Origin: Vulcanimicrobiota bacterium
GTDB taxonomy: Bacteria > Vulcanimicrobiota > Xenobia > Xenobiales > JADMJV01
Assembly: GCA_050250895.1 (NCBI GenBank)
Contig: JBFWNU010000001.1
Location: 808,008-872,007, forward strand
Direction: 5' to 3'
Length of the DNA: 64,000 nt
The notes under the pieces are model-generated. The model saw nothing but the letters and a program-made list of their open reading frames with translations, ran no database searches and had not been told where the DNA came from. A program made the translations under genes and the position numbers. Shown here piece by piece: positions 8,277 to 40,932 of this stretch (position 1 is the first letter of the stretch; each line of letters opens with the position of its first letter).

Positions 8277-9401
8277 TTACCGCAGATTGACCGGGCCGAT
8301 GTGCTTGTAGTGGTCTTTGCCGCGGAAGCTGAAGGCTCGCAGCGGCTGGTTGGAGAGGCTCCTAGCCAGGTTGTCGGCGGTGGTCTCGCCCGCCTCTTTG
8401 GCCGAGTGTTTGTCGGCCGGCACGGGTTGGCCGCCGCTGCGGGCCAGCGCCGCGTCGCCGATCACGAAGACCTCGGGATGATCGGGCAGAGTCAGATGGT
8501 CGGTCACCTCCACCCGTCCGCCACGGGTGGTGGGACCGAGGCGTTGGAGGACCTCGGGTGACTCCGTGCCTACGGCCAGCATAATGGCGGAAGCTGAAAG
8601 CACCTCACCTGAGGTCAGTGTTACCTGACCTTCGGCCACGTCGGCAAGGCGCTCACCAAGACGCAGAGTCACTCCTTTCTCGAGCAAGGCCGCGGTAGCC
8701 CGGCGGCTCACATCGTCGGGCATCCCTTGGCACAGTCGGGGTTGGCTGTGGATTAGGGTAAGATTGAGATCTTTGGACAGACTGGGATCGACCTGCTCGA
8801 CCAGGTCGGCCACGATGCCGGCCAGTTCGACGCCGGTGGCTCCCCCACCGACCACCACGAACTGCAGTTGCTGGGCGCGGCGGCCAGGGTCGGTCTCGGC
8901 CAGAGCGGCCATCGCCTGGGTGCGAACCGTTTCGCGAATCTTCTGAGTGTCTTCAGGCTGGTCGAGGGTCAGCACGTGCTCGGCCCACTCGGGATGGCCC
9001 AACAGAGCCGGTCGCGAGCCCAGGGCTACCACCAGGTAGTCGTAAGAAATGCGCTGGCCGCGGTCAAGGACTACCTGGCGAGTGGCCACATCGATGTCGG
9101 TGACCTCGCCCAATCGCAGCTGGCCGCCGGCCTTTCCCACGACTTTGGCTAGCGACTGCTGGGCTTCAGAAGTCTCTTTCCCGCCCACCGTCACCTTCCA
9201 GAGCTTGGTCTTGTAGGTCTGAGCGGGCTTGCGGTCGACCAGGGTCAGGTGGACGGGCGCCTTGAGCGACTCGACGAACTCGACGCCGGCGTAGCCGCCT
9301 CCCAGCACCACCACCTTGGGACTGTCCTGACCGGGGGCTGGCCGCCGCTTGTGGTGGCCGGCCCGAAGGGTGGGGCTGAAGTTAGAAAGACGAGTGAGCA
9401 T
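8277..9401 (-). CDS. NDH-2/AIF-like FAD/NAD(P)H oxidoreductase with N-terminal extension
   Basis: VVVLGGGYAG, YDYLVVALGS, GGGATGVELAG and VFVIGD motifs; ATG 9401 with AGGAGG RBS. Confidence 0.88.
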   Translation of the reverse strand: MLTRLSNFSPTLRAGHHKRRPAPGQDSPKVVVLGGGYAGVEFVESLKAPVHLTLVDRKPAQTYKTKLWKVTVGGKETSEAQQSLAKVVGKAGGQLRLGEVTDIDVATRQVVLDRGQRISYDYLVVALGSRPALLGHPEWAEHVLTLDQPEDTQKIRETVRTQAMAALAETDPGRRAQQLQFVVVGGGATGVELAGIVADLVEQVDPSLSKDLNLTLIHSQPRLCQGMPDDVSRRATAALLEKGVTLRLGERLADVAEGQVTLTSGEVLSASAIMLAVGTESPEVLQRLGPTTRGGRVEVTDHLTLPDHPEVFVIGDAALARSGGQPVPADKHSAKEAGETTADNLARSLSNQPLRAFSFRGKDHYKHIGPVNLR

Positions 9402-9435: not shown

Positions 9436-9467
9436 ACGATAGCAGGGTCGCCTTGACCAGACCTTGA
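9436..9467 (-). promoter_or_regulatory. direct-repeat promoter, copy 1 (drives the oxidoreductase)
   Basis: TCAAGG tctgg TCAAGG cgaccctgc TATCGT, starting just after the SARP-type regulator stop. Confidence 0.75.
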
Positions 9468-9475
9468 CCGACCGA

Positions 9476-11692
9476 TCAGGAGCCGACGATGCTTTTGTAA
9501 AGACGGGTGGTCTCGGCGCTGGGAGCCATGAACAGCTCTTCTTGCAAAGCTTCCTGGCAGCTCCAGTAGAGGCGCGCCACCCGCTCGGGTTGATCCGACC
9601 AGGCCCGCATCAAGACCTGGTAGGCTCCCTGATGGCAGCGGTCGAGCGAGAGCAGTTGTTCGCCCAGCGAGAGGCAACGTTCCCGCTGACCCAAGCGCTC
9701 ATGATGGTCCATCAAAAGCTCGAGGGCCCGGGTGGCCTGATCGCGAAACTGGCTGCGGTAGGGCAACACCCAGCTGTCCTCGACCGTTTCTAGCAGGTCT
9801 CCCTGATAGAGCGACACGGCCCGCTCGAGGGCCTCGACAGCCGCCTCCGTCTTGCCGTTCTGCCAGGCCTCGAAGCCACTGGTGACGGTCTGACCAAAGT
9901 CGAGGAAATCGGCTTTACAGGTGAAGTCCTGATTCCAGCGGCAGCAACCGCGCTGGTGCAGCACCGGGTCCGGCCCTTTACCGTCTGGAGACTTCAAGGC
10001 GCGGCGAATGTAGGTCAGGGCCGAATACAGGTTACCCTGGGCTCGGTCGCCCTCGAGCTCTTCCCAGAACAGGTCCGTGAGGCGTTCGTCAGGCACCTCG
10101 TTGCCGTTATGCAAGACCAGGATCAAAAAGAGCGAGCGACTCTTGTTGGTCTTCCAGTCCTTGTTGGTCAACTCGCGACCGTGGGCTCGCATGGTCAAGG
10201 GCCCGAAGGCCTCGAGTTCGAGGGTGGCGCCGGCTGCCCCCTCGGACCGGGGCGCGAAGCGAGCCGTCCAGGAACGGTCGCTCTCGGCCAGAGCATAGAC
10301 GGCCTGACTCAACCAGCGCTCGCGCGTGAGCACCCAGTGCAAGCCGGTCGCCTCCACCTCTTGCTCGAGTCGAGCCACCGCCTCTTGCAGCTGGCGCGGC
10401 GGGGGTCGCAAGCTTTCACCCCAGGCCTTGAGCAACAAAGCCCGCACCCGCCCGCGATTGGAGCCACTGCCGGCATAGATGGTCAGCGCTTCCTCCAATT
10501 GTTGGGCGGCCTGAGGGCGGCCCAGAGCCACTCCCAGAGCGGCTGACGTGGCCAGGGCGTCGGCTCGCTGCAGACTGCCGCGCGCCCGCTCGAGGGCCTG
10601 ACCGGCCAACTCATACCCGACCTCGGGCTGCTCGCAGGCGGCCTCAGCCAGGGCCAGCCCCAACAAAGCTTCGCACCCGGCCTGACCCTCCAGGCGCCGC
10701 AGCGCCTCGCGAGCGAGATCGGGCCGTCCGCCGTGCAGATAACCCAGGCCAAGCCCGAGCAGACGGCGACCGCCGGCCGGTTGCGAGGGCAACTCCTCGC
10801 GATTGCCGCTAAGCGTTCTCTCGAGTTCGTCGAGCACCTCGGCCGGGCCACTCCAATTGGAACGAAGCACCTCCAGGCACTCCTGGCGAGAAAGGCCAAC
10901 GGCGGCATCGCCGGGATGAGCCAGGGCATCGTAGCGCGAGACCACCGCCAGGATGGCCGATTCAGGACTCGAGACCGAGGCGCGGGCGCAGTTGATGCCG
11001 CCGCCCATCCACTCGATTACCGAGCTGTCCTGCCAGGCCTGACGCAAAGTGGGCTCTTGTTCGGCCAGCTTGCGACACAAACTGGCTCCAGAATCGAGCT
11101 CGTCGGGATGGCCGACGCTTTGCAAGATGGCTCCCAGCCCGACTCGCTCGGAGACATCGCCGGGCAGGTCCAGGGCGCGGGCCAACTGTCCCGCCAGGCT
11201 TCGCTGACGCAAAGCCCGGTCGCGGACCTGGGGGGTGGTGGCGCAGACCTCGGTCAACAGCCACTGGCTCAGTTGGCGAGCATCCTCAAAGCCTCGCTGC
11301 ATGCAACGATGCCACCAGACCTGCCGGTCCAACCATTCGAAAGCTCGCCGGATCGAGCGCAAGAAAGTGAGGTCGTCAAAAGGCTTGGTCAGAAAATCGT
11401 CGACCTGCAACCGAAAGGCTTCGACCGGGGCTTCAAAATCGGCAAAGCCGGTGATGACCACGGCCCGCGTCTCGGGAGAACTCTGGCGCAGGTGTCCCAG
11501 CATGGTCATGCCGCTCATGCCGGGCATCTTGACGTCGGTGACCACCAGGTCGAAGTGACGTTCCGCCGTCTTCTCGAGGGCCTCTTCGGCCGAGGTGGCG
11601 GTGGCCACCTCATAGCTCTCTTCTTCGAGCAGACAGGCCAGGCTGTCGAGCAGCAAGGTGTCGTCCTCAACCAACAAAATCGTTCTGGTCAC
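9476..11692 (-). CDS. response regulator: REC + degenerate HD-GYP + TPR + SARP-type wHTH/BTAD
   Basis: REC intact (VEDD, TDVKMP, TG, TKP). HD-GYP remnant GAILQSVG...AILAVVSRYDAL. C-terminal FGPL...WKT.KSRSLF..L..H...LFW...NLYSALTYIRRAL and LY.GDLL...W...LD...E/Q.AY..LMRA typical of SARP/BTAD. Confidence 0.85.
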   Translation of the reverse strand: MTRTILLVEDDTLLLDSLACLLEEESYEVATATSAEEALEKTAERHFDLVVTDVKMPGMSGMTMLGHLRQSSPETRAVVITGFADFEAPVEAFRLQVDDFLTKPFDDLTFLRSIRRAFEWLDRQVWWHRCMQRGFEDARQLSQWLLTEVCATTPQVRDRALRQRSLAGQLARALDLPGDVSERVGLGAILQSVGHPDELDSGASLCRKLAEQEPTLRQAWQDSSVIEWMGGGINCARASVSSPESAILAVVSRYDALAHPGDAAVGLSRQECLEVLRSNWSGPAEVLDELERTLSGNREELPSQPAGGRRLLGLGLGYLHGGRPDLAREALRRLEGQAGCEALLGLALAEAACEQPEVGYELAGQALERARGSLQRADALATSAALGVALGRPQAAQQLEEALTIYAGSGSNRGRVRALLLKAWGESLRPPPRQLQEAVARLEQEVEATGLHWVLTRERWLSQAVYALAESDRSWTARFAPRSEGAAGATLELEAFGPLTMRAHGRELTNKDWKTNKSRSLFLILVLHNGNEVPDERLTDLFWEELEGDRAQGNLYSALTYIRRALKSPDGKGPDPVLHQRGCCRWNQDFTCKADFLDFGQTVTSGFEAWQNGKTEAAVEALERAVSLYQGDLLETVEDSWVLPYRSQFRDQATRALELLMDHHERLGQRERCLSLGEQLLSLDRCHQGAYQVLMRAWSDQPERVARLYWSCQEALQEELFMAPSAETTRLYKSIVGS

Positions 11693-11705
11693 GGGCGGCG
11701 GTTCC

Positions 11706-13682
11706 TCATTTTCTTACCGGGTCCTCCACCAACTGGTGTCGCCCGTTTCGGATCTCGAGCAGATAGACGGGTAGCTCGGCCGGCATCTTGCCAGGGCTGA
11801 GATAGCCCGAGGCGCCGATGTAAGCCGGTTGCGTCGAGCCCAGGGCTCGAAGATTATGGCGGATCTGGTCGCGTGAGTGGCCCAGCCACGGCTCGAGCAG
11901 AGTGACTCCGTCATAGCCTTGAGCGGCGGCGCGAGTTGGCTCGACCCCAGGAAACTGGCCTTGAAACTCCTCTACGAAAGCCTTCACCGGAGCAGCCTGG
12001 GACTCGGGAAAGAAAGTCTCGGCCAGGCGCAAACCGTCGAGGGCGTCGCCCCCCGCCTCGAGCAGCCCGGCGCTGTATCCCACCACGTTGGAATAGAGTT
12101 CGGCCTGGGAACCCGAACGACGCAGCTGACGGGCGAACTCGCCCAAATAGCTGCCCGGAGCGGCTACAAAAAAGATAGCCTGCGCCCCTTTGAGTTCGTC
12201 CACCAGGGCCGAAAAGTCGCGGGTCGAGGTTGGGTAGGTGCGCTCGACCACGGTGGTCTCGCCGAGATTGCCTTTGACCACGAAGGCCAGATCGCGAGCC
12301 ATGGCCTGCTGATCATCGTAGAGTAGCCACACTTCCGAAAAATGGCGTTGGGCCAACTGGCGGGCCAGCGGCACCACCCTGGCCGGAAAGGGTGCACCCA
12401 GGGTGAAAAGGCTATCGCTTTGCCAGGCTTTGGGATGGGTCGCGCCCAAGGAAACCACCGGCAACTGTCGCCGGGCGGCCAAGAGCTCTACCGCCAGGGT
12501 GCGTTCCGAGTTGGTGGGGCCCAGCAAACAGCGAATCTTGGGGTCGGCTCCCAGGCGGTCCACCCAGCCCATGCTCTGGGCAATGGTGCTCTGGTCGTCG
12601 CATACCTGCAACCGCAGCGGCCGCCCCTGCTGCTGAACGCGTCGCTGAGCCAGAGCGGCGCCCTGAAGAAAGTTGCGAGCCTGGCGCCACTCTGGTCCGG
12701 TCAAGGGCACCACGATGGGTAGCACGGGTGATTCTGGCTGACCCAGGTTCTGGGCGGTGATGAGGGCCAAACCGTCGTCGGGCTCGGCCTGCTGCCAGCT
12801 TTGAGCCAGTTGTCGGGCCAAAGTCTCGTCGCCCTGCAGCAAGGCCTGGTCGATTCGAGCCAGAAACGGCGATACGCCGGGCTCGGTCGGACCCACCGGC
12901 AGCAGGCCCAGCACCAGGCAAACCAGGGAGCAAAGGCACAACAGCGTGGCCGTCCACAACGACCGGGCCGGAATCAGCGCCGCCGGCCGTCCCAGTTGAG
13001 CCAACCACTCGAGCAGCTCGGCACCGCTCTGGGGACGCTGGTCCGGATCGTGATGGGTCCACTTGTGCAGTAGCTCGGCGAAGGGCGAGCGGGCCGGTCC
13101 GATCATCGCCTCGAACAGCTTGCCAAGCGAGTAGATGTCGCTGCGGGCATCACACCGATGGTCGCTCTCCGGGGCCAGATAGCGCGCCACCCCGCCCGCG
13201 GCCGGACCGGGCGACTGGAGGGCCAGCCCGAGATCGACCACCCGCACGCTCCCACCGTCGTCGAGCAGCAGATTCGCCGGATTGAGGTCGACCAGATAGA
13301 CCGAGTGCTGATGGAGATAGTCGAGCAGCCGAGCCACCTCATAGACCACCGTCAAGGCCCGGGCCACAGGCAACGGCGCCTTTTCCAGCCGAGCCGCCAG
13401 GGTCTGGCCGCTGATAGCGTCCATGACTAGAGCGGGGCGACCTTCGTGTTCGAGGCGGTCCACCAGGGTCGGAAGAGCTCGATGCTGCAGTCGGGCCAGC
13501 AGTTGGGCCTCGGTGGCAAACAGCTGCTCGAGACGCACGCCAGGCACTCTGGGTTCGGCCAGTTTCACGGCCCAGCGCGTGCCCGGCAGGCGCAGGTCTT
13601 CGCACAACAGAACCTGGCTGGTGCCCCCCTGGGCCAACACCGCCGCCACTTTGTAGCGACCGCTGAGGACCTGCCCTATCAC
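11706..13682 (-). CDS. membrane Ser/Thr kinase fused to a type-1 (LivJ-like) periplasmic binding domain
   Basis: QGGTSQV, WAVK, DLNPAN, DLG, YLAPE and SDIYSLG kinase motifs; one TM; VPLTG...LGPTNS...AAQGYDG binding-protein pattern. Confidence 0.85.
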   Translation of the reverse strand: MIGQVLSGRYKVAAVLAQGGTSQVLLCEDLRLPGTRWAVKLAEPRVPGVRLEQLFATEAQLLARLQHRALPTLVDRLEHEGRPALVMDAISGQTLAARLEKAPLPVARALTVVYEVARLLDYLHQHSVYLVDLNPANLLLDDGGSVRVVDLGLALQSPGPAAGGVARYLAPESDHRCDARSDIYSLGKLFEAMIGPARSPFAELLHKWTHHDPDQRPQSGAELLEWLAQLGRPAALIPARSLWTATLLCLCSLVCLVLGLLPVGPTEPGVSPFLARIDQALLQGDETLARQLAQSWQQAEPDDGLALITAQNLGQPESPVLPIVVPLTGPEWRQARNFLQGAALAQRRVQQQGRPLRLQVCDDQSTIAQSMGWVDRLGADPKIRCLLGPTNSERTLAVELLAARRQLPVVSLGATHPKAWQSDSLFTLGAPFPARVVPLARQLAQRHFSEVWLLYDDQQAMARDLAFVVKGNLGETTVVERTYPTSTRDFSALVDELKGAQAIFFVAAPGSYLGEFARQLRRSGSQAELYSNVVGYSAGLLEAGGDALDGLRLAETFFPESQAAPVKAFVEEFQGQFPGVEPTRAAAQGYDGVTLLEPWLGHSRDQIRHNLRALGSTQPAYIGASGYLSPGKMPAELPVYLLEIRNGRHQLVEDPVRK

Positions 13683-14695
13683 GGGGCGAACCGGGCCGGC
13701 AAGATCAGATCGGCCCCTTCAGAATGACAACTGAGTCGCCCGCCAGCGGTGGCCACCGCATCCTGCAGCTGCTCAGAAATGTCGCCACCACCCTGCAGTC
13801 TGACCCAGACCTCGTCGGCCTTTTCCTGGGTGGTCACCGACACCTTGCCCATCATCAACTGACCCAACAGATGCCCCAGTCCGGCCGGATCGGCGATAAT
13901 GGTGTGGGTGAGTTGGCCGGGCCTCCAATCGATGCTCAGCCCCGAAGCCTGGACGGCCGCCTCGACCAGTTGATTGATATCGACCGGGACCCGTACCAAC
14001 TGGCTGAAGGTCACGTCCCGCTCGACCATATCGTAAGGTCGGCGGGCAAAGAGCATGAGTTTCTCGATGACCGTCTGGCAACGCTCGACCGAACGCTTGA
14101 TCAGATCGACCCGACGGGCCACGGCAGGGTCTTCACCCCGACCCAGGCGCGTAGCATTGGTCAGGATGGTGGCCAGCGGCGTGTTGAGTTCATGGGCCAC
14201 TCCCGCAGCCATCTTGCCCAGGGCCACAAATCCACGCCGGTCCTCGTCACCAAGGCCCGAAGCCCGATGGCGCAAGCTCTCGAATAACGGCAACACGGGC
14301 CGGCAATCGGCCGCCAGGGCGGCCGCCGAGCCAGCCTCACCCGTCCAGACCAGGGCCAGCCCAGGACTCAGCCGGAGGCCCTGACTCGAGCCCTCGTCAA
14401 AAAGCTGCGCGGCCGCGGCGCGGCAGTTCTCGAGCTGCCCGGACACCGGCTCCCAACTGCACAACAGGGTGGGTTCGGGACCCGAGAAAAGAAAGAGAGA
14501 CTCTAACCGGTGGTGCCGCCCCAGGATAGCCAGCACCTGGCTGCCGGCCTCGGTCACCTGGGTGGTCGAAGTGGCCGCCTGGGCCAGCTCCTCCCACAGC
14601 CGCGAGCGGCGGCTGGCCCGCACGAGCAGGGCCAGACTCAAGCAAGAAGAGATGGTTGCACCAAGGGCGGCCACGGCCAGCAGAGTGGTATTCAC
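13679..14695 (-). CDS. membrane histidine-kinase-like protein with intact HisKA and degenerate HATPase
   Basis: N-terminal TM; AAGVAHELNTPL H-box; no N-box Asn, no DxGxG, no GxGLGL. Confidence 0.8.
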   Translation of the reverse strand: MNTTLLAVAALGATISSCLSLALLVRASRRSRLWEELAQAATSTTQVTEAGSQVLAILGRHHRLESLFLFSGPEPTLLCSWEPVSGQLENCRAAAAQLFDEGSSQGLRLSPGLALVWTGEAGSAAALAADCRPVLPLFESLRHRASGLGDEDRRGFVALGKMAAGVAHELNTPLATILTNATRLGRGEDPAVARRVDLIKRSVERCQTVIEKLMLFARRPYDMVERDVTFSQLVRVPVDINQLVEAAVQASGLSIDWRPGQLTHTIIADPAGLGHLLGQLMMGKVSVTTQEKADEVWVRLQGGGDISEQLQDAVATAGGRLSCHSEGADLILPARFAP

Positions 14696-15819
14696 TGCGT
14701 CGGCGGATGAAACCCCAGGTGAAGGGCGCTGCGCACCAGCTTCGTGCCGAGTTCGGTCCGGGCCTCGAAGTCAAGACTAAGAGGCAACTCGAATAGCAGG
14801 GATACGCCAGCGCCGCCTTTGCCGGCTTCTTGCACCAGGGTCCCATCGTAGCGATAGGGCACCAGGCGAAAGTCATGCTCGCGCAGGACCGGCTCGAAGG
14901 CCTTCAGAAAGGCAAGGCTCTGCGGGGTGGGGTGGAAAATGCACAGACGGCCGGCCCGCCCCTGGTCCCATTCGGCCAGCCCCTCGTGCAAGTCGATCGC
15001 CAGGCCTGCCTGCTGAGCGGCACTACAGATCTCGGCCGCCCGTTGCTGCTCGGGAGTACCGTTAGGGTCGCCCGGAAAGATGCGGTTCATATCGACCGAT
15101 TGCCCGTCCTCACCGAGGTTGCGACGGCTAATCATCATGCCGGCCCAGGGATTGCCGTTGGAGAAAGTGCGCACCCGAGACTCGGGATGCTCGTCGTGGA
15201 TGGTCCCTGCCACGGCCATGCCGGAGAGTTCGTTGCCATGGACGCCTCCCACCACGACCGCCTTGCGCACCCGCTCTACCCCGTCGCTCGGGCGCATGTC
15301 TAGCCAGTCGCAGACCTGGTCGACGTTGGCGAAAACCATGTGCTGGGCCAGCAGTTGTGGATGCTCGTGCTTGAGCTGGCCAAAAACCTCGCGGGTGGCG
15401 GCGGGGTCGTCGGCCAGCCGAGCGCGCAGGGCCTCGACTTCACGAGGCAAGGTGCCGGCGTTGCGACGGTGAACCTCGAGCCGGTGCAGCAACCCGTCGC
15501 GAACCCGGTCGCTCATTCCATGGCCGGCCGTTCCCTTGAGCACCGCGTGACAGTCCTCGAAGAGCAGGATAGGCCGCCGACTCACTTTTGGCGGCTCCTG
15601 CCAATCCAGGGTTTTCGGAGCCGCCGCGAGCTGGCAAGTGGGGCCTTTGGGCACCGCCGGCGGCGGGGGCTCGGTGGGTGACGGTTTGGCGGCCGGGGCT
15701 GCCCCTAGCTCGCATTGGTCGAGGGGAAGGGGGGCCTCGTCGGTGGCGGGAGCCACAGTGAAGGCTCGATGGGGCGGAACAAACGCTTCCCGACGACCGA
15801 CGATCCCCTGCAACTCCAT
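14692..15819 (-). CDS. M14-type (succinylglutamate desuccinylase/aspartoacylase-like) zinc hydrolase with Pro-rich N-terminal extension
   Basis: GGVHGNE, DMNRIFPG and IDLHE motifs in the C-terminal half. Confidence 0.8.
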   Translation of the reverse strand: MELQGIVGRREAFVPPHRAFTVAPATDEAPLPLDQCELGAAPAAKPSPTEPPPPAVPKGPTCQLAAAPKTLDWQEPPKVSRRPILLFEDCHAVLKGTAGHGMSDRVRDGLLHRLEVHRRNAGTLPREVEALRARLADDPAATREVFGQLKHEHPQLLAQHMVFANVDQVCDWLDMRPSDGVERVRKAVVVGGVHGNELSGMAVAGTIHDEHPESRVRTFSNGNPWAGMMISRRNLGEDGQSVDMNRIFPGDPNGTPEQQRAAEICSAAQQAGLAIDLHEGLAEWDQGRAGRLCIFHPTPQSLAFLKAFEPVLREHDFRLVPYRYDGTLVQEAGKGGAGVSLLFELPLSLDFEARTELGTKLVRSALHLGFHPPTQ

Positions 15820-15860
15820 AGCATGGTTATGCCACCCCTATAAGGTCGTGTCAAGCTCAC

Positions 15861-15888
15861 AAAAAAAAGGGTTCCGCATAGCGGAACC
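15861..15888 (-). terminator. intrinsic terminator of the predicted sRNA
   Basis: GGTTCCGC-TAT-GCGGAACC-C-TTTTTTTT. Confidence 0.88.
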
Positions 15889-15916
15889 AACTAGGAGCTA
15901 TCTATTCTCACTCAAC
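15861..15916 (-). ncRNA. predicted ~56-nt small RNA
   Basis: Bounded by a TCAAGG-type promoter and an intrinsic terminator; no credible ORF. Confidence 0.6.
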
Positions 15917-15922
15917 CAGATA

Positions 15923-15954
15923 AGCTTAAGCCCACCATCTTGAAAAATCCTTGA
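15923..15954 (-). promoter_or_regulatory. direct-repeat promoter, copy 2 (drives the sRNA)
   Basis: TCAAGG atttt TCAAGA tggtgggct TAAGCT. Confidence 0.7.
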
Positions 15955-15964
15955 CGGGGGTTAG

Positions 15965-15996
15965 AAAGAAAAAAGGGCCCCGTGTTACCGGGGCCC
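15965..15996 (-). terminator. intrinsic terminator of 16021-16314
   Basis: GGGCCCCG-GTAACA-CGGGGCCC-TTTTTTCTTT. Confidence 0.88.
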
Positions 15997-16020
15997 GATA
16001 GCGCGTTCAACTAAGAACTC

Positions 16021-16314
16021 TTACTTGTGCAGGGCTTCGCTGACGCCGATCCCCGCGCACATAAAGCCGGCCATGACCGAGCTAAATCCTGTATAAGGGA
16101 AACCTACCAGGGCCAAACCGACTCCGCCGGCCATCAACACGCCGCCTGCGGCGAACCAACGACCGGGCTGCGGCTGGCTGGCCGTGGTCGAAGGGGTGAA
16201 GGTCTCGGTGGGCTCCGAATTCGATGCCGCGCGGCTCGACTGGGCTGGAACGGACGTGGCTTGTCGAGTATAAACTCTAGCAATGGATGGGCTGTTGAAG
16301 TGCGAACGAATCAT
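16021..16314 (-). CDS. small protein: Ser/Thr/Pro-rich N-terminus plus C-terminal Gly-rich two-helix membrane hairpin
   Basis: ATG 16314 with GAGGAGG RBS; own promoter and terminator; 97 aa. Confidence 0.75.
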   Translation of the reverse strand: MIRSHFNSPSIARVYTRQATSVPAQSSRAASNSEPTETFTPSTTASQPQPGRWFAAGGVLMAGGVGLALVGFPYTGFSSVMAGFMCAGIGVSEALHK

Positions 16315-16357
16315 CTTATCCTCCTCAGGCTGGCTCTGGGTCCTGCCTCCTGACATC

Positions 16358-16389
16358 AGACTAGCCGGCCCACCTTGACTTTTCCTTGA
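16358..16389 (-). promoter_or_regulatory. direct-repeat promoter, copy 3
   Basis: TCAAGG aaaag TCAAGG tgggccggc TAGTCT. Confidence 0.75.
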
Positions 16390-16398
16390 GCTGAAAAG

Positions 16399-16430
16399 TC
16401 AAGGTCAAGTCAAGGCTGAGCACCTATAGT
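16399..16430 (+). promoter_or_regulatory. direct-repeat promoter, copy 4 (leaderless)
   Basis: TCAAGG tcaag TCAAGG ctgagcacc TATAGT agggtc ATG. Confidence 0.78.
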
Positions 16431-16436
16431 AGGGTC

Positions 16437-16697
16437 ATGATCATTTCGACGCATTCACCCAAACATCGCTCTTCCTTGGCTCGCCCGGCTGTGGCCCGGC
16501 CCGAGCCCGAACCGCAAGACACTTACACGCCTGGCTCTCGCCCGGTGGTCATGGCCACGCCGGTCTTGACCATGTTCGGAGCGGCCGGCCTGGGCATCTA
16601 TCATGGTTCCTGGGCGCTGGGCCTGGTCGGGGCAGCCGGTGGGGCTTGCCTGGGGGTGGCCCTCGACTACGGCTTCAACAAATGGATGGCCTCATGA
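16437..16697 (+). CDS. small protein: Ser/Pro-rich N-terminus plus glycine-zipper membrane hairpin
   Basis: 86 aa; GAAGLG...GLVGAAGGACLG; leaderless start 6 nt after TATAGT. Confidence 0.75.
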   Translation: MIISTHSPKHRSSLARPAVARPEPEPQDTYTPGSRPVVMATPVLTMFGAAGLGIYHGSWALGLVGAAGGACLGVALDYGFNKWMAS

Positions 16698-16715
16698 AGA
16701 GGCTTGACACCGTGT

Positions 16716-17903
16716 CTAGCCTACTCGACGAGGCTTTTCGTGGATCGTGCCCGGCCTGCTAGCGGGAGGCTCAGGGGCCACGACTTTGGCGTAGACCGAG
16801 ACCAGCGCAAAACGCATCCGCTCTTTCCAGCAGCGGGTCAGCGGCTCGTCGCGGGTGACGTGAAAATAGGTATGGACAATCTTCTTGAGCACGCTCGACT
16901 CCATCATGTTTCCCCGCACGCGGCCGGTCTCGCGGTTGGCAGCCTCGACCGAGAAACGGTAGCGGTGCCCGGCAAACTCTTTGTTGGCGCGCACTGCCCG
17001 GTCATAGACCTGATCGATCAGATTCTTGGGCTTACCGCACTCGATGCGGGTTCCCAGACAGATCTCGGTCTCTTCCATGACGGCCCCGATGGGCACATAG
17101 TCGCCCACGCAGTTGAGTACTTCCAAAGCGGGCAGGCGGCTCTGATCGCGGTTGGTCAACGCCATGAAGTCGCGCAGCCCCTGATCGATGGGTAAGAGGT
17201 TAAGCTGAGCCGTCGGGTCGAGGTCCATGCGCACGGCATTGACCCCGGCCTTGTTGAGCTTGCGATAGCTCTCGAGAAACATATACAGCCCGAACGTACT
17301 GCCCTCGTAAGCGCCGGTCTTGGAATGGCCCACGCAGATGCTGGGGCGGATGATGCTCAGGGCGATATGGCTGCCGGCGGCCTCTTGAGCCAGCGACAGC
17401 TCGGTCATGCTCTTGGACATCTGATAGCCGTTGAGGAAATGGTCAGGCACTACCAGGTTCTCGGGCACCGGTCCCCGGTGCAAACCAGCCGAATAGGCTG
17501 TGGAAACGTAGTGAAACCGTCGACAATTGGGAGCATGGCGCTTGAGCACCCGCAGCAAGCCTACCGACCCGGCCACGTTGGTGATCATGCTATTGAAACT
17601 ACGCTTGCGTGAATACGACATCTCGGCTGCGCAGTGCCACACCATATCGACCTGATCAAGTCCCTTGGGCGGCAGCTGTCCCGGTTCAGCGCCCAATTCC
17701 CAGTGAGCGGCCTCAAGACGCGAACGCTCTTCGGGGGTCAAAGCCCAGCCCACGGCCACCGAGGCCTGCTCCACCGCCCGACGGATCTTGTCCGGGCCAC
17801 TTCGACCCAGACAAAGCACGCGATGGCCCTCCCTGAGCAGATTAGCCGCCAGAGCACTTCCTAAAAAGCCCGTGGCACCGGTCAATAAGATCGTCGAAGC
17901 CAT
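16716..17903 (-). CDS. extended SDR / fatty acyl-CoA (thioester) reductase-like protein
   Basis: LLTGATGFLG, WHCAA, YVSTAY, YQMSK and IRPSICVG motifs; ATG 17903. Confidence 0.85.
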   Translation of the reverse strand: MASTILLTGATGFLGSALAANLLREGHRVLCLGRSGPDKIRRAVEQASVAVGWALTPEERSRLEAAHWELGAEPGQLPPKGLDQVDMVWHCAAEMSYSRKRSFNSMITNVAGSVGLLRVLKRHAPNCRRFHYVSTAYSAGLHRGPVPENLVVPDHFLNGYQMSKSMTELSLAQEAAGSHIALSIIRPSICVGHSKTGAYEGSTFGLYMFLESYRKLNKAGVNAVRMDLDPTAQLNLLPIDQGLRDFMALTNRDQSRLPALEVLNCVGDYVPIGAVMEETEICLGTRIECGKPKNLIDQVYDRAVRANKEFAGHRYRFSVEAANRETGRVRGNMMESSVLKKIVHTYFHVTRDEPLTRCWKERMRFALVSVYAKVVAPEPPASRPGTIHEKPRRVG

Positions 17904-18010
17904 TTCAGTCCCCTTCCAAGTTCCGCCGCAGATACCACGAAGGGGGTGACAATTCCTCCGTCTGGAGACGGTCAACAGGAACCAATCCTGACAAGCAGAA
18001 GGGGTGTTCG

Positions 18011-40066: not shown

Positions 40067-40906
40067 ATGAGTACTGTCGATGTCGAGACTATCCAGAGCC
40101 GCATCCGCGCGGGCGTGGACTATCTCAAAGGCAAAGTCAGCCGCCGTCCTGACATCGGGGTCATTCTCGGCTCGGGCCTGGGAGAGCTCGCCGACGAGAC
40201 CCAGGACAAGCAGGTCATCCCCTACACCGACATCCCCGAGTTTCCCCGGGCTACCGCGCCGGGCCACAAGGGCAACCTGGTCTTCGGCACGCTGGGCGGC
40301 AAGTCGGTCATGCTGATGCAGGGACGCGTCCACACCTATGAGGGATACAGCCAGGCCGAATGCACCATGCCGGTGGTCATGATGAAAGAACTCGGCGTCA
40401 AGACGATGATCGTGACGGCCGCCACCGGGGGCCTCAACTACAATCACAAGTCAGGCGACCTGATGCTGATTCGCGATCATATCAACTTCACCGGCACCAA
40501 CCCGCTGGTGGGACCCAATGACGAGAAAATCGGCCCCCGCTTTCCGGTGATGTTCGATGCCTACTCGCCCGAACTGCGCGAAGTGGCTCGTCAGGTCGCC
40601 CTCAAGCAGGGCATCAATCTGCACGAAGGCGTCTATTGTGGCGTGCAGGGCCCGGTCTTTTTCACCAAGTCCGAACTGCGCATGCTGATGCTGTGGGGGG
40701 CCGACTCGATCGGCATGTCGACCGTGCCCGAAGTCATCGTGGCCGTTCACCGAGGGATGCAGGTGCTAGGTATTGCCGTGGTGAGCGACATCGCGATTCC
40801 CGATGCTGGTCATCACGCCACCGAGGCCGAGGTGCTCGAGACCGCCCGCCAAACCGGTCCGCGCTTCCGCCAACTGGTCAAGGGCATCCTAGAAGCCATG
40901 CCTTGA
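40067..40906 (+). CDS. purine nucleoside phosphorylase (trimeric family I)
   Basis: ILGSGLG, GH.G.L..G, QGRVH.YEG, DHIN and GMSTVPE motifs; ATG 40067. Confidence 0.92.
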   Translation: MSTVDVETIQSRIRAGVDYLKGKVSRRPDIGVILGSGLGELADETQDKQVIPYTDIPEFPRATAPGHKGNLVFGTLGGKSVMLMQGRVHTYEGYSQAECTMPVVMMKELGVKTMIVTAATGGLNYNHKSGDLMLIRDHINFTGTNPLVGPNDEKIGPRFPVMFDAYSPELREVARQVALKQGINLHEGVYCGVQGPVFFTKSELRMLMLWGADSIGMSTVPEVIVAVHRGMQVLGIAVVSDIAIPDAGHHATEAEVLETARQTGPRFRQLVKGILEAMP

Positions 40907-40932
40907 CAATCGGCTTGTGGATAACCTAATAT
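40903..40932 (+). promoter_or_regulatory. sigma-70-type rpmB promoter with a DnaA box in the spacer
   Basis: TTGACA-N18-TAATAT; TGTGGATAA at 40916-40924. Confidence 0.6.

Follow-up and report, generated by a model that had tools for sequence, protein, structure and literature searches.

A candidate small non-coding RNA behind a probable SARP-type promoter, next to a signalling operon of a Vulcanimicrobiota bacterium

The window analysed here is a stretch of 64,000 nucleotides from a Vulcanimicrobiota bacterium, and its minus strand carries a compact unit at 15861-15954 that is read, with moderate confidence, as a small non-coding RNA of ~52-56 nt that is activated by a regulator and terminated independently. 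The TCAAG promoter of this candidate RNA truly belongs to a local set of promoters and is no chance match. Small RNAs are already known as members of response-regulator regulons; here, such an RNA would stand behind a SARP-type promoter. If the unit is real, it would provide, in a phylum that has been little studied and is without a defined regulatory RNA, a compact and testable case of a response regulator that controls transcription and, via a small RNA, translation. SARP-type activation would also gain a non-coding target beyond the actinobacteria.

The unit and its promoter set

An earlier note, made from the letters of the window alone, had described the unit as an unannotated RNA of ~56 nt with its own promoter, a terminator and an exposed CUCCU. 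All of its parts are found on the minus strand where the note had placed them: the boxes, the -10 element, the hairpin and the U8 tract. The distal activator box is the heptamer TCAAGGA (15948..15954; hexamer TCAAGG at 15954-15949), which is read from the sequence and is part of a pattern with five members in the genome. The proximal box is the heptamer TCAAGAT (15937..15943; hexamer TCAAGA at 15943-15938), which follows at an 11-bp period and lies 8 bp from the -10 hexamer TAAGCT (15923..15928), also read from the sequence. With 19 cases, TAAGCT is one of the most frequent hexamers at a distance of 6 nt ahead of leaderless starts in the genome. Transcription is predicted to start at G15916, the 7th base past the -10 hexamer, because in 364 leaderless starts the start codon begins, with its A or G, at the 7th base past TANNNT, and it is from this leaderless geometry that the position is derived.

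The candidate transcript spans 15916-15861, which gives the predicted size of ~52-56 nt, and the unit is present in a single copy in the genome. It begins with an A/U-rich 5' region of 28 nt (15889..15916, minus strand) that is largely unpaired in the predicted folds and ends with an intrinsic terminator (15861..15888, minus strand), consisting of an 8-bp stem with 6 G-C pairs, a UAU loop, one C and U8, with the hairpin at 15888-15870 and the U8 tract at 15868-15861. This terminator is real, as the earlier note had claimed: the 56-mer folds at -15.4 kcal/mol, compared with -9.5 +/- 2.3 kcal/mol for shuffled sequences, and only 2 of the 200 shuffles equal it. The first 29 nt of the candidate RNA fold at -2.1 kcal/mol, which is no better than shuffles. 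The pentamer CUCCU lies in this part without a stable fold, at 15897-15893. Its chance expectation in 24 positions is ~0.03, by arithmetic from base frequencies, and by itself the pentamer is weak evidence. No credible open reading frame is present inside the candidate RNA, in agreement with the earlier description, since the longest internal frames, starting from UUG or GUG, have only 5-6 codons; a TTG frame of 61 codons (15890-15705) requires read-through of the terminator. A search of positions 14000-18000 with the Rfam covariance models, which the note had suggested, returned 6 matches at E values up to 10, all far below the gathering scores and none on 15861-15954, and the candidate RNA thus matches no Rfam family.

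The promoter pattern, defined as TCAAGR-N5-TCAAGR-N9-TANNNT, was searched for on both strands of the 9.5-Mb genome (G000). Five matches were found, compared with 0.035 expected from the motif frequencies. In a spacing grid of 72 combinations (8 box gaps and 9 spacers), all 5 matches share a single cell (gap 5, spacer 9); the remaining 71 cells contain 4 matches in total, and the reversed pattern has none. The note had recognized the promoter of the candidate RNA as a further copy of a repeated element, and this copy is indeed one of the five genome sites at one exact spacing. The TCAAGG element keeps its role as part of a promoter; its description is refined, as it is not the -35 element of a sigma factor but a pair of direct repeats at an 11-bp period, located 8 bp from the -10. 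A promoter of an ECF sigma factor was also considered and rejected, as the site combines a TANNNT -10 with two direct repeats spaced at 11 bp.

Window positions 9436 to 16430 contain four of the five sites, which are thus within 7 kb around a regulator gene that is described below. In addition to the candidate RNA promoter, these are a promoter on the minus strand (16358..16389; two TCAAGG boxes, 8 bp, TAGTCT) of a 97-aa orphan membrane-like ORF (16021-16314), a divergent promoter on the plus strand (16399..16430; two TCAAGG boxes, 8 bp, TATAGT) that lies 6 nt ahead of ATG 16437, and a promoter on the minus strand (9436..9467; two TCAAGG boxes, 8 bp, TATCGT) of a Pyr_redox_2 gene (8277-9401), which is located just downstream of the regulator gene. 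The ORF that starts at ATG 16437 (region 16399-16697, plus strand) encodes 86 aa without a Pfam match and, with its leaderless geometry behind a TCAAGG-type promoter, is probably leaderless. The fifth site is on contig C3 and is followed by a 297-aa ORF and a 161-aa ORF, both without a Pfam match, and a cytochrome P450 gene (L022:6538-9611, corresponding to C3:138537-141610).

The presence of these sister sites bears on the reading that the unit has no working promoter and that its hairpin is a back-up terminator of the 97-aa ORF. Such a reading is very improbable. It could draw on the proximal box, which is the weaker TCAAGA, but the proximal box of the fifth site is TCAAGA too, and a pattern that is expected 0.035 times per genome has two further copies within 450 bp. 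Furthermore, the 97-aa ORF already has its own terminator (15975..15996, minus strand) with 8 G-C pairs, a loop of 6 and T6, located 20 nt upstream of the first box of the unit.

Independent transcript or leader of the signalling operon

Downstream of the unit and in the same orientation, a signalling operon is present (9476..15819, minus strand), whose four genes overlap or nearly abut. Based on Pfam matches, it encodes an AstE/AspA-like protein (14692-15819), a HisKA protein (13679-14695), a Ser/Thr kinase with a periplasmic binding domain (11706-13682) and a REC-wHTH-BTAD regulator of 738 aa (9476-11692), all on the minus strand. The AstE/AspA-like protein starts with ~80 residues that are rich in proline and alanine and cannot be aligned with the N-terminal region of ~140 residues of the orthologues from genus g4. 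The regulator gene lies within the operon, 4.2 kb downstream of the candidate RNA unit. Its BTAD domain is matched at an E value of 2.2e-16, while the match to Trans_reg_C is weak (E 0.0035, under its cut-off). The C-terminal 259 aa of the regulator align over wHTH and BTAD with EmbR (2fez), a member of the SARP family, at an E value of 3.4e-4.

The U tract of the unit ends 41 nt ahead of the operon start, ATG 15819, which agrees with the distance of about 40 bp given in the earlier note. That note had offered, as an alternative to a trans-acting RNA, a terminated leader that controls read-through into the operon. In this case, the regulator-dependent promoter would feed the operon, most transcripts would end at the terminator, and the fraction of read-through transcripts would raise the kinases and the regulator in a positive feedback. 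The shared orientation and the short distance fit such a leader, and so do the letters of the operon's own -10. Immediately ahead of the operon, a promoter-like site is found on the minus strand (15826..15854) that consists of TTGACA (15854-15849), a spacer of 17 bp and CATAAC (15831-15826), followed after 6 nt by ATG 15819. CATAAC is not a TANNNT hexamer, lacks the conserved T, and is the sole such hexamer among 7,741 first starts. Because the -10 is CATAAC rather than TANNNT, the operon's own promoter is possibly weak, and the operon may partly rely on read-through. A further point for a leader comes from G018, a genome of genus g4, in which TCAAGG boxes are found immediately ahead of the operon start but point in the opposite direction; in the remaining g4 loci, boxes are absent from the region upstream of the operon.

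Against these points, the terminator is strong. With a strong terminator defined as a perfect stem of at least 7 bp and a T run of at least 7, there are 44 in the genome (19 Mb of strand), or ~2e-4 per 100 nt. The genome has 169 exact tandem-box promoters when all box types are counted, and that of the candidate RNA unit is the only one of them with an intrinsic terminator within 260 nt. When a 138-nt sequence reaching into the operon is folded, the terminator hairpin is kept, the fold is no more stable than shuffles, and no competing antiterminator structure is found. Neither of the features looked for in a riboswitch or attenuator is therefore seen, as this 138-nt fold contains no antiterminator and no Rfam aptamer is matched, and the 5' part of 28 nt is too short and too unstructured for a sensor. 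The operon also has a perfect TTGACA at 17 bp from a hexamer that lies 6 nt before the ATG, and this geometry recurs as TTGCCC-17-TAGTCT-6-ATG in 5 of 6 loci with the orthologous g4 operon, where the upstream genes differ. A read-through RNA would moreover make ATG 15819 an internal start without a good Shine-Dalgarno sequence.

The candidate RNA unit thus looks insulated from the operon, and an independent small RNA is favoured over a leader because the operon has its own promoter with leaderless geometry and no antiterminator fold is present. The leader, weakened by the strong terminator, the operon promoter and the absence of an antiterminator, is kept as an unlikely alternative since the CATAAC -10 is poor.

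The locus in relatives and an analogous RNA in a sister lineage

Orthologues of the regulator (53-54% identical) are rare: with G000 counted, they are present in 5 of 44 genomes of the class and 5 of 401 genomes of the phylum. Outside G000, they are found in four genomes only, all from genus g4 of a sister family, and these four g4 genomes share the synteny of the four-gene operon. The TCAAGG boxes recur in this genus as well, with 23 occurrences of TCAAGG-N5-TCAAGG in five g4 genomes, compared with 1 for the reversed control. Most of the g4 sites have four boxes, of which the last one lies 8 bp from TANNNT, and some of them flank the orthologous operon. In g4, a TCAAGG-type promoter also precedes short ORFs that start with M-x-I-A-A. 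The two genera differ in how the genes are arranged around the regulator, and in G018 the oxidoreductase is located on the opposite side. In that genome, a TCAAGG promoter lies ahead of a Lipid_desat gene (PF10520), which is followed by the oxidoreductase (L018:5106-6104, minus strand). G000 has nine Lipid_desat paralogues elsewhere, none of which is behind a TCAAGG-type promoter, and the possibility that the 297-aa ORF behind the fifth promoter corresponds to the g4 lipid desaturase was rejected (BLASTP E 0.06).

From their proximity to the operon and their co-occurrence with it, the TCAAG boxes are assigned to the REC-wHTH-BTAD regulator of the operon. This assignment stays provisional because many REC/BTAD paralogues are encoded in the genome and because genomes of family f1 that have no orthologue of the regulator keep TCAAGG pairs (30, compared with 11 for the control).

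A DNA homology search of 15800-16460 against 40 relatives gave only short spurious matches, none of them on the candidate RNA, and no homologue of the 97-aa ORF was found in these 40 relatives, making it an orphan. The absence of the RNA in the 40 relatives is uninformative because the regulator operon or the neighbouring ORF is missing from these genomes as well. A regulator search of genome contigs yielded 80 loci, all of which are generic receiver-domain matches with 30-47% identity. Among 80 loci kept from metagenome contigs, alignment of the AstE-like protein identified 2 as orthologous, both g4-like, and no closer relative of the locus was found.

The segment 15860-16700 is lineage-specific, without DNA or protein homologues among the 40 relatives. 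Together with the different gene order around the regulator in the two genera and the fact that no target was found, this would fit a relic, in which a promoter and a terminator were left adjacent after the loss or rearrangement of an intervening gene, possibly producing a short RNA without function. A relic is, however, improbable, as the boxes, the spacing, the -10, the perfect stem and the uninterrupted U8 are all intact, and as a non-coding RNA of analogous kind, also behind boxes of this type, is under clear constraint in g4.

This analogous RNA was identified in three g4 genomes, where ~125 nt without an ATG or ORF lie behind four TCAAGG boxes and a -10 (L023:1501-1685 in G016, L032 on the minus strand in G024, and L040:1501-1690 in G020). 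The predicted transcript ends in a 12-bp hairpin and is convergent with a lipoprotein-like gene. The RNA block is 89-93% identical, and the identity is 41-48% in the spacer beyond it, 31-41% in the upstream flank and 83-90% in the convergent gene; the flanks of the block do not align. Based on this comparison, the constraint on a non-coding RNA behind TCAAGG boxes in g4 is clear. In its predicted fold, a C/U-rich stretch is exposed in a large loop, and the terminal hairpin has CCUCCUCA in its loop region. No homologue of the g4 RNA was found in G000, G018 or G022, and Rfam searches of four g4 loci gave nothing relevant, apart from one tRNA upstream in L023.

The g4 RNA and the 56-nt RNA resemble each other in the box type, the 8 bp to a TANNNT -10, the absence of an ORF, the terminal hairpin and the exposed C/U-rich stretches. 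In contrast, the g4 RNA is unrelated in sequence, about twice as long, preceded by four boxes instead of two, without a U tract after the hairpin and located at another locus. Because a constrained non-coding RNA sits behind the same box type in the sister lineage, an RNA arm of the regulon is, by analogy, plausible here as well. Tentatively, and with a low probability, it is suggested that a post-transcriptional arm of this SARP-like two-component system arose twice, through the recruitment of unrelated RNAs of 56 nt and ~125 nt behind TCAAGG boxes, both exposing C/U-rich anti-Shine-Dalgarno stretches. If this were true, activation of the regulator would switch genes on and at the same time damp the translation of other mRNAs. 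In that case, a small RNA would for the first time be described as a regulon member of a SARP-type activator, and this poorly known phylum would have its first defined small RNA.

Proposed action, known systems and promoter context

In SARP systems, the binding sites are direct repeats spaced one helical turn (11 bp) apart, and the proximal repeat lies 8 nt upstream of a housekeeping-type -10 (PMC11301090, PMC10972967). In the promoter of afsS in Streptomyces coelicolor, which is bound by AfsR, the 11-bp repeats are on one face of the DNA and the 8 nt to the -10 replace a good -35, and the activators combine an OmpR-type wHTH with a following BTAD (PMC11301090, PMC10972967). The unit described here has the same elements: direct heptamer repeats at 11 bp, 8 bp to the -10 and a wHTH-BTAD regulator in the adjacent operon. 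It differs from the SARP systems in that the box is TCAAGG, the host is not an actinobacterium and the predicted product is a non-coding RNA instead of a protein gene. In the regulator itself, the wHTH-BTAD part is C-terminal, behind a receiver domain and ~390 unassigned residues, which also differs from SARP. From these sequence features, we infer that the promoter of the candidate RNA would be activated in the SARP manner by the regulator of the operon.

A Ser/Thr kinase is encoded beside a SARP-like regulator also in the AfsK/AfsR and PknH/EmbR systems. Small RNAs that are controlled by response regulators include OmrA/OmrB with OmpR, MgrR with PhoP, and RoxS/RsaE with ResD/SrrA. Such small RNAs have an activator-dependent promoter, an unstructured seed and a U-tailed intrinsic terminator, and they are induced together with the protein-coding regulon; in RoxS/RsaE, C-rich motifs are directed against Shine-Dalgarno sequences. 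The 56-nt RNA has no sequence or Rfam relationship to OmrA/OmrB, MgrR or RoxS/RsaE, is at the short end of their size range and would depend on a SARP-type activator instead of a plain OmpR/PhoB-type one. Among the papers listed by a full-text literature search, largely of open-access journals, none was found that describes a SARP-activated small RNA. In PMC8780764, the topics of SARP and small RNAs are unrelated.

In the favoured reading, that of an independent small RNA, two copies of the activated REC-wHTH-BTAD regulator would occupy the tandem TCAAG boxes, which lie on one DNA face. The bound regulator would recruit RNA polymerase at the TAAGCT -10, replacing the -35 contact, and transcription would proceed from near G15916 to the U8 terminator. 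The RNA would be induced together with the genes behind the four sister promoters, which are the 97-aa ORF, the 86-aa ORF, the flavoprotein oxidoreductase and the cluster on C3 with the proteins without Pfam matches and the P450. The build of the candidate RNA, with an unstructured 5' region of 28 nt, a 3' hairpin and a U tail, is typical of a base-pairing small RNA. Its 5' region, including CUCCU, would pair with the ribosome-binding regions of mRNAs and lower their translation, possibly with the help of the Hfq homologue that the genome encodes (Hfq family match of 85.1 bits, on contig C6). In comparison with small RNAs of the Hfq type, the unit has its own predicted promoter, a U-tailed terminator, no ORF and an accessible seed, in a genome with Hfq.

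Pairing with targets better than chance was not found among 20,608 starts. The earlier note had pointed to target prediction as a check, and for this, the 28-nt seed was scanned against 20,608 candidate starts that bear a Shine-Dalgarno sequence, with four shuffled seeds that keep CUCCU as control. With the real seed, 42 duplexes of -25 kcal/mol or lower were obtained in these initiation regions, compared with 16-50 for the four shuffled seeds, so that no target stands out. The 5' UTRs of the sister genes pair with the candidate RNA through AGGAG only, and 3-3.5% of shuffles equal this pairing. One site, at 13719-13695 on the minus strand, has a G-U-rich complement of 21 pairs to the 5' region of the RNA and lies 13-37 nt ahead of the kinase start, within the last part of the HisKA gene. 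Its duplex has an energy of -24.3 kcal/mol, and none of 200 shuffles is as good; in a genome-wide ranking it is at about the top 0.3%, which is unexceptional. The modelled pairing makes this site a lead and not a result. If the RNA arm arose twice as suggested above, the targets could include the system's own kinase gene via 13719-13695, which would create a negative feedback loop. A type I toxin-antitoxin pair formed by the 97-aa ORF and the RNA was rejected, as the RNA does not lie antisense to this ORF and its pairing with the 5' UTR of the ORF is weak.

The wider promoter context is perhaps more generally useful than the candidate RNA itself. In G000, TANNNT lies exactly 6 nt before the first ATG or GTG in 364 of 7,741 ORFs, compared with 19-75 at each other distance from 0 to 20, and 6 nt before internal start codons it is found in 23 of 5,803 cases. 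The -10 consensus of this leaderless class is TA(G/A)(A/G)CT, and a TTGACA-like -35 is enriched in it (29 of 364, compared with 98 of 7,741). Exact pentamer pairs in the arrangement box-11 bp-box-TANNNT fall into multiple classes in this genome, of which TTCAG is dominant with 52 members, followed by TCAAG, TTAAG, GCAAC and CGTCG with 5 each, and CCAAC and TTGAC with 4 each. The tandem-box rule and the 6-nt leaderless rule are of help when promoters and gene starts are to be recognized in these genomes. The box word can also occur apart from the tandem geometry, as in the intergenic inverted repeat GTCAAGG-N17-CCTTGAC at window positions 40877-40907. Some box classes are locally clustered, for example, at C5:562808-570650, at C10:129358-130408, and at C1:2594097 and 2595952, as if each clustered class were tied to its own paralogous activator.
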